Part shown: positions 7,253 to 42,864 of the stretch, piece after piece
Position numbering within the stretch: the stretch's first letter is position 1
How the letters are laid out: each line of letters opens with the position of its first letter
NCBI GenBank assembly: GCA_002633005.1
Contig: NMRA01000011.1
Location: 501,395 to 565,394 of the forward strand
DNA: 64,000 nt
Reading direction: 5' to 3'
Source of the DNA: Phoronis australis
Lineage: Eukaryota > Animalia > Phoronida
The notes under the pieces: model-generated
Told to the model about the DNA's origin: nothing
Databases searched by the model: none
What the model saw: only the letters and a program-made list of their open reading frames with translations
Position numbers and translations under genes: made by a program

Positions 7253-7336
7253 GTCGTAGCCTAGTCGTGAAGAAAAACGATGTGAAAGAATCTTCAGAAA
7301 GTAACGCGACCACCATTGATGATGAAGACACTAAAA
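7253..7336 (+). CDS. CAMK2: CaMKII variable-linker exon (G)RSLVVKKNDVKESSESNATTIDDEDTK(S)
   Basis: Acceptor ttcttttccAG (7251-7252), donor GTAAGT at 7337, phase 1-1, 84 nt; matches the conserved CaMKII linker motif KESSES..TTIEDEDTK. Confidence 0.9.
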
Positions 7337-8689
7337 GTAAGTGTGTTCAGTGGTAAGAAGGGGTTCAGCTATAATAATGTTATTAATCTTTAACTAGGTG
7401 CTCCTCCGTGGTGTCATCTACAGTTCAGTTGCAAGGAGGGGTTCAGCTATAGTAATGTCATTAATCTTTAACAAGTGGTCCTCTGCGGTACCATCTACAG
7501 TTCAGTGGCACAATTGAGTTCAACTCCAATAATGAACTGGTGCCTCTGAACTGTTTTTCAATAAACAACATCAATCATGTCTGTTGTATAATTTTTATAA
7601 GCATAGCCTGATGGTGCTTAATGGCAGTAATTTCATGGTCTACAACATGTGCACAGATAATGAAGGGCCTAAATATAGCCCTACCTCATCATTTGCACCT
7701 GAATGGATACCTGGATAGATCAATACCTGATGTAGTCCAGTCAGGCACTATGGATTTTAGCTTGCCAGCCCCTAGCTGATTAGTCTTGTGCAATTTCAGC
7801 TCCTTAGAAGTTGTCACCCATCATCTACTGGGTAATTTTTTCATAATATAAGAGAACCAATTTCTGAATTTTTCAGAATTGTACCCGGCCATTATACTGT
7901 TTTCAGGACCACCATAATCTTTATTTATTTCAAAGTGTAATTTAAACCTGCATTTCGTCTTGTGTGAGTGGCGAAATGTGGCTTTAATACATACCTGTTA
8001 ATTTATCGTACAACATGAGAAGTATATGCCTCATACCAAAAACTTTTGGCGAAATGCCAGCAACAGTAGTCGTCATCATTGAGATCTTTTTTTAAATGAA
8101 CTCCCAGACAGGTCTTCTCCAAAAAGTTGAAATTTGTTAATAAAAAGCACTTTTTCGAAAAGTAGACATTTTTGGGATGGAGAATGTCATTTAAAAGCAT
8201 TAGATTTCCAGTGTTCTCATTCACTATTAATGATATTTAGGAGCTTCGTAATGACACACATCTTAAGGTGTTTATGGGTCATTTTGCTAATAGGTTCATG
8301 TCAAAACCTTTTGTGTTGTCAGTATGTCAGTGTGTGCTAAGGTCAAAGTGGCTGGATCTGCTATCACTAACTGTCTCTGTTGGTGTCCAAGAACGGTGCT
8401 TGTAGTCGTGATTGCACTAATGAACGGAAGTGTATACGTCTTCCTAACCATCTTCAGTGCATGCGAGAATGTGGTAGTATATGTCCTCTCTCTCAAGTCT
8501 GCTATATATCTACATTGTGGAATGGTTATTAAAACGATCTTTGTGGCTTGCTGTTGCATTTTAATGCTGTGCACAATTAATAGACCATTCTCGCATAAAC
8601 AGTGCCAGAATATAGGCCCTGATGCTCCTGCCTGCCGTGCACTACTGTCAAAGTAGCAAAGTATGAAGTATTGAATTTTTACGACTTCA

Positions 8690-8975
8690 GAAGTGTAGGG
8701 TAGCAGCATACATCGACCCCCCATTTTCCCAACCCTTACTTTGCTCTCCCAAAAGTGTATGTTTGCAGAAATCATCGACCCCCTGCTCTCCCTAAAGTGT
8801 TTGGTAGCAGCGTATGTTGACCCCGCTCTCATAAAAGTGTATGAAATCAGCATACATGGACCCCTCGTTCTCCCGGAAGTATATTTGGTGGTATTATACA
8901 TCGACCTCGGCTTTCTCAAATGTGTATGGTAGTAGCAAACATTGATCCCCCCTCCCCGGTGCTCTCCCAAAAATC
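8690..8975. repeat. Degenerate ~40 bp minisatellite (GTAGCAGCATACATCGACCCCC..CTCTCCCAAAAGTGTAT)
   Basis: Several diverged units visible; underlies part of the spurious 274-aa ORF. Confidence 0.6.
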
Positions 8976-9949
8976 TCCTGTCATATGTACTTGTGAAAAC
9001 AGCACTAATCGTGTGGGACAAACTTGCTTTCCCGCTCCTTGTCATCTTCTCTAAGGCAAGTTGTGTTGACCCTTCTACTAGCCAGTGTGTTCTATAAATG
9101 TGTACATTGAAATGTTGCAATTACAGAGAGCAGTATTGAGTAACACTATGAGCATTATATAGTGGACTGAGTGTTAGATGCGAAATGATAGTCACCTGTG
9201 TAGAAGCACCTTTTATGAGTTGCAGGGGTCTGCTGTTAGTTTGAAGGAGGTAGAACCAGCTTTTGTTATGGTAGTTTAGTTGTGTTGAGAGCCGCACGGT
9301 CGATACACAGACCATGGAGATGGGAAATGCAGTTTTCAAAAATGCAGAATTTCATAACAAATTGATGCTTTTATCATAATACAAATTTTATAAGTTAAAA
9401 CTGTTATCGAACATTGTCTGCATATCCTTATTTGTCATATGAATATCAGTTCTTCATTTGAAATGTTAGTCCACTCTACCGTGCGGAGTACTCACAGTTG
9501 TTCCCCGTATTAGATTGACAATAAACATTCATTTGGAATGTGCTGAATAGTCACAGTTAGTCCTTGTATTAGATTGATAGTGAACATTGTAATCTTACTT
9601 AGTTATCGTAGTAAGTTACTTTATGCGTGACCAGTTCTAGTTTGTTGTACTTGACTGGTTCTCTGATTCTCTCTATTACGTAAACATTTGGGTTAACCCC
9701 CATGGTCACGTTCGTGTCCACTTTTGCAAATTACTGCTTGGCTAAGTGCCCATACTCTGCTTTTGAGAATTTCAGTTAAGCATCCACTGATCGGGCTAAC
9801 GCCCAGCTGGATTATACAGCGACACTGCAATTTACCCAGAATACCACAATATCCGTCAAACATTTTTAACCTTGCTTCCTTGCCCTTTTAATTCACTTGT
9901 TCTTTGTTCATATTCTTTACAATTTTTCTCGGTTGCATTACTCTATTCA

Positions 9950-10350
9950 TCCTTCCAATGCCAACAAAGTATTAGTGCTGTGCTGTTACTGTGGGCTGCA
10001 ACACAGTCGCGAGAAAGTAACAACTTGGCAAATGGCCGTAGATGCGTGATGTTCTTCTCCTTCCTGACAACAATCAAAGACAAGAAAATGCAGAACGAAC
10101 GGATAAAGCAGGTTCGCTAGGTTTATTTTGAACCACGCAGAATCCCATATTGAAGACACTTTTTCAGTTCTGGTGCTTTTAATTCATTGAAATCAGGAAT
10201 ATTTCCATGGCCATACTCTCGATGATTTTCCACGTGACCGGGACGTGAAATTTGTCCTCACATTCCTAAACAGAAGCTAGTGAAAACAAATCGCTTTCTA
10301 ACCTCCGGTCAAAGAAGAGTTCTATTGCTACTGCTTCGGGACGACCCAAT
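9950..10350 (+). mobile_element. Second decayed copy of the THAP-transposon fragment
   Basis: atgccaacaaagtattagtgctgtgctg..gtgggctgcaac and tccggtcaaagaagagttctat align with the reverse complement of 4420-4640. Confidence 0.55.
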
Positions 10351-41464: not shown

Positions 41465-41573
41465 TTCTCTCCAAAACTAAACGCAACACCACCCTTGTAA
41501 GCCCCACTGTTCACCTGCTAACTGAAGATTCTGCCTGCATTGCGTTCGTGCGGCTCAGCCAAATAATGAATGC
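41465..41573 (+). CDS. CAMK2: CaMKII hub cassette 3, exon C: VLSKTKRNTTLVSPTVHLLTEDSACIAFVRLSQIMNA
   Basis: tttttcAG, GTAAGT at 41574, 109 nt (in-frame 6-nt deletion versus cassettes 1 and 2), phase 1-2. Confidence 0.92.
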
Positions 41574-41749
41574 GTAAGTATTGGTGTAAGTTGTCTTATT
41601 AATATTGTACCGGTGCAGATAAAGCTAAGATCTGATTTGAGAGGGCAACCTCCGGACTTCACTACCTTCCGTCCCTTTGTAGAATATTTAATGTTGCCGT
41701 GTTCAGTCTACAGTGCTGTGATGTACACGCGCATATTTGCCGTACGCAG

Positions 41750-42110
41750 ATGTACATTGGCTAAACGTATAGTCTGGCCACTCACAGCCTGGTTACGCTC
41801 AGTCTGGATATGCACAGTCTTTGCTACGCACAGTCTGGCTACGTACGGCCTGGCTATGTACGTAAAGTCTGGCTACGTGTTGTTTGGCTACGTGTTGTCT
41901 GGCTACGCGCTGTCTGGCTACGCGCTGTCTGCCTACGTACAGTCTGCCTACGTACTGCTACGTAGACCTACTCTCTGTCTAGGTACAGCCTGCATGGCTA
42001 CGTACATCCTGGTTACGTACATCCTGGCTACGTACATCCTGGCTACGGACAGTCTGGCTACGTAAAGTCTGGCTACGCACATCCTGGCTGCGTACAATCT
42101 GGTAATGTTC
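41750..42110. repeat. 15-bp minisatellite (CTGGCTACGTACAGT/CATC)
   Basis: Period 15 visible at 42001/42016/42031; explains the 150-aa ORF. Confidence 0.9.
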
Positions 42111-42761
42111 GTGTCTATGGCTACTTTCTTGTACGTCCCCCAGAGGCTATCTTTTATTAGTATTACCATTATTAAATATTGCTCCCTTGCGGAAACGTTT
42201 AAAATAACGATAAACTCTTACATCGGGTACACGATGCAAATGGTGGGCGCATATCAACGCCCTACTTAGTTTGCTCTTGTTATATTTAAAAGGATACTAA
42301 ACCCTGTTTTGAGGATTTCCACCAATTCCTCGTTATATCATTGTCGTCAATCTTCCAAGTTAAAGGCGAGAATCTTTTATAAACTCGTACTGTCTTTGTC
42401 ACTGATTGGAAATTATGATACTTTGTGATGCATGGTTGCCATGTACTGAATTCGCTAAAAGCGTAGGTCACGCTCGCCGTTTAAAGGAGTATTCAAATTT
42501 TCCTCCAAACTTTTTTCAGTTGTCGAGGTTTACAGAGCATCAATTTGTTTCAGAGAACTGGATGGGAAACTCGTTTTTAGTATCTCATGTCAAAACTGGG
42601 TTTGGTGTCATATTAAATAGCCATGGAGACATAGACTATAGATTTCAAACTAGTGAGGTACGGAAGCAGTTAAATTTGATATTACAGACACGTGTTCACT
42701 TTCTTGCATGGGATCGATGTAAACGATTTTTTAATTTGAATTCTTTCTTTATTTTTTAAAG

Positions 42762-42864
42762 AAACGGCAAGCCTGAAACAATAGAAGTTCAAGAGACTCG
42801 TGTTTGGGTTCGAAAAGACGGAAAGTGGCTAAATGTCCATTTTCACCGCTCGGGGGTGCTCTAG
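42762..42864 (+). CDS. CAMK2: CaMKII hub cassette 3, terminal exon [34 protein letters not shown]
   Basis: Polypyrimidine tract + aAG at 42760-42761, phase 2, TAG at 42862-42864; AATAAA at 43378. Confidence 0.92.

Follow-up and report, generated by a model that had tools for sequence, protein, structure and literature searches.

Two CaMKII hub cassettes of Phoronis australis are spliced to local upstream exons and may be stand-alone, kinase-less hub genes

Three hub cassettes behind one CaMKII linker exon

We analysed a 64,000-nucleotide stretch of the genome of the phoronid Phoronis australis (NCBI GenBank assembly GCA_002633005.1, contig NMRA01000011.1, positions 501,395 to 565,394 of the forward strand; hereafter the window, numbered from its first letter), in which the last linker exon of a CaMKII gene is followed by three complete four-exon cassettes for the hub, or association, domain. 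Hub 1 is spliced to the linker, while exon A of both hub 2 and hub 3 is joined in RNA to short upstream exons lying close by. An earlier note, made from the DNA letters, had proposed either a single gene that swaps whole hubs by choosing among terminal cassettes, in the manner of immunoglobulin constant regions, or hubs 2 and 3 as stand-alone genes lacking a kinase. The local joints speak for the second proposal.

The window has a G+C content of 39.7% and contains four single Ns, at 35716, 46131, 50242 and 63822; the supposed gap at 35716 is thus one letter in the sequence. The linker exon and the three cassettes are placed correctly in the earlier note and are spliced in RNA (Table 1), although the upstream exons of hubs 2 and 3 were overlooked there. 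Exons A/B/C measure 76/95/115, 79/95/115 and 76/95/109 nucleotides in hubs 1, 2 and 3, respectively, with the same intron phases (1/2/1/2) in each. Acceptors are AG and donors GT throughout, and no frame is interrupted before its own stop; the C-terminal tail of hub 2 is 11 residues longer than that of hub 1. The AATAAA motif behind each cassette, also offered as evidence, carries little meaning: its first copies lie 1.9, 1.0 and 0.5 kb past the stops, in a window that averages 0.8 per kb.

All 12 hub exons match the Pfam family PF08332 (CaMKII_AD), whose profile matches all solved CaMKII hubs, at consecutive profile positions; nine lie above the curated cut-off and the three short A exons below it. 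No Pfam family is matched by the linker exon. Hubs 1 and 2 are identical at 95 of 132 aligned residues (75% over 125 core columns), hubs 1 and 3 at 91 of 127, in keeping with the earlier hand alignment, and hubs 2 and 3 at 85 of 127. Between cassettes, a self-comparison aligns the exons and dispersed repeats only, so the introns indeed lack colinear similarity. Likewise, a tblastn comparison of 11 CaMKII proteins with the whole window revealed no second linker or kinase exon, the best of the 105 matches outside the known exons having an E value of 0.27. A matching pair of segments, 27560-27683 and 37254-37378, was considered as an exon and rejected, as it has no open frame.

Table 1. Exons and transcript features of the CaMKII linker and the three hubs, with RNA read counts for runs X2/X3/X4
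Feature	Position	Strand	Evidence and remarks
Last linker exon of the CaMKII gene	7253..7336	+	19/23 residues as in CaMKII linkers; joint 7336->14549 in 15/15/47 reads and 1 contig
Hub 1 exon A, linker-attached	14549..14624	+	Frame, splice sites, RNA joints, Pfam
Hub 1 exon B	17654..17748	+	Frame, splice sites, RNA joints, Pfam
Hub 1 exon C	18358..18472	+	Frame, splice sites, RNA joints, Pfam
Hub 1 exon D, coding to stop	20781..20892	+	Joint 18472->20781 in 21/27/75 reads
Hub 1 3' untranslated region, about 3.1 kb, end approximate	20893..23990	+	Sense depth, molecule ends at 23902, AATAAA at 23971
Upstream, likely first, exon of the hub-2 gene	26342..26415	+	5' end is a minimum; in-frame ATG at 26409
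Hub 2 exon A	27932..28010	+	Frame, Pfam, RNA joints; second in-frame Met, where the other hubs have Lys
Hub 2 exon B	29431..29525	+	Flanking joints in 15/20/27 and 17/24/32 reads
Hub 2 exon C	31409..31523	+	Frame, Pfam, RNA joints
Hub 2 exon D, coding	32704..32848	+	Joint C->D in 27/31/60 reads; untranslated-region reads to about 33700
Upstream exon 1a of the hub-3 gene	37611..37643	+	5' end is a minimum; in-frame ATG at 37625
Upstream exon 1b of the hub-3 gene	37788..37858	+	5' end is a minimum; no in-frame ATG
Hub 3 exon A	38040..38115	+	Joint 38115->40662 in 9/13/12 reads and 1 contig
Hub 3 exon B	40662..40756	+	Joint B->C in 11/14/9 reads
Hub 3 exon C, shorter by two codons	41465..41573	+	Frame, Pfam, RNA joints
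Hub 3 exon D to stop	42762..42864	+	Joint C->D in 7/2/0 reads

Hub 1 is joined to the linker, hubs 2 and 3 to local upstream exons

Transcripts were followed in three raw RNA runs, X2, X3 and X4, whose read counts are given below in that order and separated by slashes, and in a contig set, X1, of small word share, which at a guess is RNA. Alignments were made at 90% likeness for 3000-22999 (hub 1) and at 98% for 23700-43699 (hubs 2 and 3). The junction 7336->14549, which the earlier note had singled out as a check, is present in every run, and the remaining introns of hub 1 are spliced in 6/11/67, 16/17/35 and 21/27/75 reads; the first of these three joints is drawn one base off, which is best understood as a base difference at the exon edge. 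A 2094-letter X1 contig carries the hub-1 joints and extends about 540 letters further 5', outside this stretch, which we infer to be regulatory and kinase sequence. Depth over hub 1 is without a ramp (25/24/71 at the linker, 22/25/43 at exon D). Its sense depth runs unbroken into the 23700-24366 bin, where a molecule end and an AATAAA lie close together, and falls to zero at 25034-25700 in all four runs.

Beyond this silent interval, exon A of hub 2 is joined to a local exon through a GT..AG intron, 26415->27932, in 11/14/24 reads, and all the introns within the hub are spliced (15/20/27, 17/24/32 and 27/31/60 reads). Reads extend 69-74 letters upstream of the 26415 donor, past in-frame AGs at 26352 and 26358, while upstream of 26368 the depth amounts to only 9-15 letters' worth. 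Along the mRNA the depth rises from 11/12/24 at 26396 to 33/38/64 at 31491, about threefold over the first 270 letters, and the CpG count near the upstream exon falls in the 97th percentile of 500-base windows. The read reach, the missing upstream depth, the ramp and the CpG richness together suggest that 26342-26415 is likely a first exon. Its ATG at 26409 is in frame and preceded by an in-frame stop, giving a predicted product of 146 residues with two full codons ahead of exon A. At the last junction, hub 2 (27/31/60) and hub 1 (21/27/75) have similar counts, obtained at the different likeness cut-offs given above.

Two other features touch the hub-2 gene. A 55-bp tandem repeat of 6.4 copies (31503-31866) duplicates the end of exon C together with its donor; among the joints listed, the first donor alone is used and none of the decoys. 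In addition, an antisense spliced joint with CT..AC ends, 30288-31990, crosses exon C in four reads of X2 only.

Hub 3 has two upstream exons. Exon 1b is joined to exon A (37858->38040) in 8/12/1 reads and exon 1a (37643->38040) in 0/0/3 reads and in an X1 contig that reaches 33 letters upstream, the latter joint being flagged 'between: not known'. Within the hub, the introns are spliced in 9/13/12, 11/14/9 and 7/2/0 reads, and the CpG count near the upstream exons is in the 94th percentile of 500-base windows. The ATG of exon 1a at 37625 is in frame behind an in-frame stop and leads to a predicted product of 133 residues, with six full codons ahead of exon A. In exon 1b, an in-frame stop stands three codons before the donor and the only ATGs are out of frame; hence a full hub cannot start there. 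Hub 3 is therefore a weaker case than hub 2: it is expressed less, has evolved faster and, in two of the runs, has mainly a 5' form from which the full hub cannot start. Just upstream of these exons, at 37040-37706, there is a low antisense depth (0.87/1.57/0.18), which could be divergent promoter transcription or a repeat.

Stand-alone genes, hub swapping or a hidden second gene

Terminal cassette swapping does not appear to be the main mode of expression at this locus. For hub 2, reads from the local exon and reads at the next junction are about equal in all three raw runs (11/14/24 versus 15/20/27); for hub 3, they compare as 8 versus 9 and 12 versus 13 in X2 and X3, but as 4 versus 12 in X4. 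A very short first exon would lose reads, which may be one way to explain this shortfall. Neither hub 2 nor hub 3 was found with a kinase, a regulatory segment and a linker upstream of it, as full-length CaMKII would have. Furthermore, none of the 24 loose ends listed for 23700-43699 matches the linker end, the smallest raw-read rows listed there having 9, 10 and 23 reads.

It is still conceivable, though in our judgement improbable, that alternative 3'-terminal splicing lets the kinase gene exchange its hub in a limited set of tissues or stages, beside the hub-only transcripts. The linker fits hubs 2 and 3 in phase, and joining them gives open frames. A linker-hub frame would also be kept open by 5 of the 15 AGs in the hub-2 upstream region, which is about the chance level, and by one AG in exon 1a of hub 3; the X4 shortfall at hub-3 exon A leaves further room for such joints. 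Against swapping, in addition to the local exons and the missing linker end, hub-1 transcripts stop near 23.9-24.0 kb, and the reads that enter the hub-2 upstream exon continue past the two in-frame AGs at which a linker could have been joined.

The earlier note had also allowed that cassette 3 might be an ordinary tandem paralogue with its kinase exons in the N at 35716. Near-identical duplications in 44014-48201 and 63463-64000 flank two of the other Ns, at 46131 (2.1 kb, 94%) and 63822 (118 bp, 100%), and are likely uncollapsed overlaps at assembly gaps, so that a single N may well represent a gap of unknown length. This is what lends some substance to an assembly artefact, or to hub 3 as the tail of a second CaMKII gene with its kinase exons concealed at 35716. 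However, hub 3 takes its upstream exons from the 3' side of that N, the hubs share no more than 69-73% of their DNA letters and have unrelated introns, and reads at 98% likeness splice each cassette separately. We consider either version extremely improbable.

We therefore return to hubs 2 and 3 as stand-alone hub genes. Their upstream exons are very probably first exons, and the products would then lack the kinase, the regulatory segment and the linker. Several considerations weigh against this reading, and against the idea that the products mix with CaMKII. The linker lies 20.6 kb from exon A of hub 2, beyond the alignment span, so that a joint from the linker to hub 2 or 3 would be visible only as a loose end. 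The three raw runs, all stranded, come from one study and were chosen by species label, and 18-19% of each was read. The X1 contigs contain no hub-2 coding joint, and the attachment of hub 1 to a kinase is deduced from the linker and the approximately 540 letters 5' of it. For hub 3, the principal 5' form in X2 and X3 runs through exon 1b, which has no in-frame ATG, the C->D joint is weak, and in X4 the 5' side of exon A is explained by 4 reads where the next junction has 12. Finally, about 28% of the residues of hubs 2 and 3 are not those of hub 1, a divergence that may keep them from mixing with it.

Hubs 2 and 3 are old duplicates with conserved cores

Nei-Gojobori counts over the hub core give 0.162 nonsynonymous (dN) and 2.04 synonymous (dS) substitutions per site for hubs 1 and 2, and 0.202 and 1.37 for hubs 2 and 3; for hubs 1 and 3, dN is 0.184 and dS is saturated. 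In every one of the 10 exon comparisons, those of exon A among them, 6-13 codon changes are purely synonymous. These counts mark hubs 2 and 3 as long-standing duplicates held by purifying selection, with dN/dS at about 0.08-0.15. Among at least 11 coding variants listed for the two hubs, seven are synonymous and four change a residue; there is no stop, and no coding indel is among the variants listed. The combination that the earlier note had named as the mark of pseudogenes, missing transcripts with dN/dS near 1, is thus contradicted on both counts: transcripts are present and dN/dS is far below 1.

Of 38 columns that are invariant in 12 reference animal hubs, hub 1 retains 36, hub 2 35 and hub 3 30, two of the misses being common to all three hubs. 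Four His and three Arg core columns are retained in all three; by position, we take them to be the dimer-interface His (human His477) and the cavity Arg residues. One of the hub-3 misses, at 40672, concerns the window's letter only: the window has A, but all reads and the X1 contig have G, which restores an invariant Asp; the A of the window could be an error or a rare allele.

These data bear on the possibility that the extra hubs, though transcribed, are decaying or not translated, a notion that is credible mainly for hub 3. There, the main 5' form in X2 and X3 offers no in-frame start, the first intron is still present in reads, X4 has no C->D joint, and 8 of the 38 invariant columns differ. 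On the other hand, frames and splice sites are intact even though synonymous sites are near saturation, the residue at 40672 is the conserved one in 17/17, 15/15 and 15/15 reads, and hub 2 is fully expressed, with a clean start. Decay is, in sum, a very improbable account of these hubs.

In a quick IQ-TREE analysis of 80 rows (the three hubs and 77 of the 385 proteins fetched, selected to cover a spread of taxa) over 128 columns, the three hubs form one clade with a support of 95 in the Shimodaira-Hasegawa-like approximate likelihood ratio test (SH-aLRT), with hubs 2 and 3 as sisters (87). The end branches measure 0.098 for hub 1, 0.20 for hub 2 and 0.46 for hub 3. Among these 385 proteins, profile searches brought up neither a close relative nor an isoform of this gene, the best identities being 69.6%, 65.6% and 59.5% for hubs 1, 2 and 3, respectively; a protein search with single exons returned two distant hubs.

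Other features of the window

Between the hub-1 3' untranslated region and the hub-2 first exon, a broken reverse-transcriptase-like fragment occupies 24748-25350 on the minus strand; its motifs suggest a long interspersed nuclear element (LINE). A dispersed repeat family is present at 14803-15974, 30500-31343 and 49668-50445, and at 90% likeness sense RNA reads that stem from other copies align to it by the hundred. At about 59475-59571 on the minus strand lies a probable alpha-L-fucosidase exon of a neighbouring gene, bounded by AG and GT, with a weak match to PF01120 (E 0.00086) that is below the cut-off.

Comparison with known hub-only proteins

By profile and by residues, hubs 2 and 3 belong to the CaMKII hub family, but they are neither full CaMKII genes nor alphaKAP. 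They resemble alphaKAP, which has its own promoter, no kinase and a complete hub, in that the genes described here probably have the same properties, with starts deduced from the RNA. The two arrangements differ in other respects. AlphaKAP shares the hub exons of the kinase, while hubs 2 and 3 are separate, diverged exon sets about 72% identical to the kinase's hub; and alphaKAP has an N-terminal hydrophobic anchor, with the zebrafish isoform consisting of anchor, linker and hub, where hubs 2 and 3 have no anchor, no linker and only 2-6 extra N-terminal codons. By analogy, hubs 2 and 3 may nevertheless work like alphaKAP.

Stand-alone, kinase-less hubs are also described for green algae and bacteria (Chlamydomonas, Volvox, Gonium and Pirellula), whose genomes are reported to lack a CaMKII kinase, in the accessible part of 10.1101/536094. 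Unlike these, hubs 2 and 3 are derived from the animal's own CaMKII hub, with which they form one clade and whose introns they keep, and they adjoin the kinase gene and are expressed with the CaMKII transcript. Several diverged hubs per genome, as found here, are familiar from vertebrate alpha, beta, gamma and delta CaMKII and from Nematostella CaMKII-A and -B, the hubs of the latter pair being 62% identical according to the accessible text of PMC4859805. Such ordinary paralogues duplicate the whole gene, as the full-length construct numbering in that text indicates, whereas here only the four hub exons have been duplicated.

A parallel comes from the hemichordate Glandiceps talaboti, for which two RefSeq models of 146 residues, XP_077999528.1 and XP_077999218.1, are hub-only with a short N-terminus that is not a linker. 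They agree with the species' kinase-linked hub at 90 of 131 aligned residues and are placed on a contig whose size equals that of the full-length CaMKII's contig (18,482,504); two core Arg residues are missing from the second copy. In the tree, the Glandiceps hubs group with hemichordate hubs (SH-aLRT 95), apart from those of the window, so this arrangement, known from predicted models, likely has an independent origin.

A screen of 398 proteins yielded 49 short hub proteins without a recognised linker. Among the 30 proteins looked up, only the Glandiceps pair reads as diverged hub-only genes; most of the other short hubs are unnamed or apparent fragments or isoforms of the kinase gene, and in C. 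briggsae short models without an evident kinase domain are annotated. The top-scoring sturgeon protein was rejected as a likely annotation artefact, for it repeats half a hub letter for letter. Four animal-type hub-only open frames of 130-149 residues occur in JGI/ENA contigs and may be further hub-only genes or fragments.

Kinase-free subunits as a proposed function

The balance tips, if only slightly, towards hubs 2 and 3 being tandem, kinase-less hub-only genes with their own promoters, whose products co-assemble with full-length CaMKII. In this proposal, the four hub exons would have been duplicated behind the CaMKII gene, acquired promoters and then been duplicated again; hub 1 would have stayed on the linker, and hubs 2 and 3 would be transcribed separately from their own short upstream exons. 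The predicted products would be a complete hub and almost nothing else. If the upstream exons are first exons, such chains would probably enter the 12- or 14-mer ring as kinase-free subunits, an expectation drawn from known CaMKII biochemistry. In the accessible parts of PMC9913510 and PMC5882894, both alphaKAP and isolated hub constructs are described as assembling together with full-length CaMKII, and it is from this precedent that co-assembly is proposed for hubs 2 and 3. A holoenzyme with such subunits would carry fewer kinase domains and have lower cooperativity, trans-autophosphorylation of Thr286 from neighbour to neighbour would be thinned out, and ring size or stability might be shifted; a few hub substitutions can alter stoichiometry, according to the accessible part of 10.1101/536094. 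As hubs 2 and 3 have no anchor to supply, dilution of kinase domains would be the simplest effect. Since the mRNAs of hub 2 and of linker-hub 1 are present in similar amounts in these samples, this dilution could be large, provided that both are made in the same cells.

The same transcript evidence, local upstream exons and ATGs alike, would also fit stand-alone hub genes whose products form rings of their own and serve as a scaffold, a ligand binder or a decoy for hub-binding partners. Such separate rings would agree with the divergence from hub 1 and the longer branches of hubs 2 and 3, with the retained core Arg residues, and with the self-assembly of isolated algal and bacterial hubs as 14- to 20-mers that the accessible part of 10.1101/536094 describes. 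Hub 2, however, retains the interface-type His and 35 of the 38 invariant columns, hubs 1 and 2 have similar expression in the same samples, and different vertebrate hubs co-assemble, as stated in the accessible text of PMC5882894. We consider separate rings rather unlikely, and hence a real but lesser contender to co-assembly with CaMKII.

Significance

The hub of CaMKII sets the size, stability and subunit exchange of the holoenzyme, and the number of kinase neighbours sets its cooperativity. In the literature searched, which included few subscription papers and no supplements, duplicated hub-only genes or hub swapping in animals are not described. The function of the isolated hub genes of kinase-less algae and bacteria is unclear, as far as the accessible part of 10.1101/536094 goes. 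Expressed, selected and diverged hub-only genes beside a CaMKII gene would offer a natural test of whether cells tune the enzyme with kinase-free subunits, and hubs 2 and 3 would provide natural hub variants for studies of assembly specificity and ring size. Hub-only genes are easily dismissed as split annotations, and the Glandiceps models suggest that more of them exist.

Tentatively, and with somewhat more doubt than confidence, we propose that animals have spun off kinase-less hub genes more than once, by duplicating the four hub exons beside the kinase gene, and use them as 'blank' subunits; hub 2, with roughly one mRNA for each kinase mRNA, would occupy a large part of the ring and thereby set kinase density, cooperativity and ring size. 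If this is true, kinase-free subunits in Phoronis australis would come from separate, diverged genes, unlike alphaKAP, which is an anchor built on the same hub exons as the kinase.

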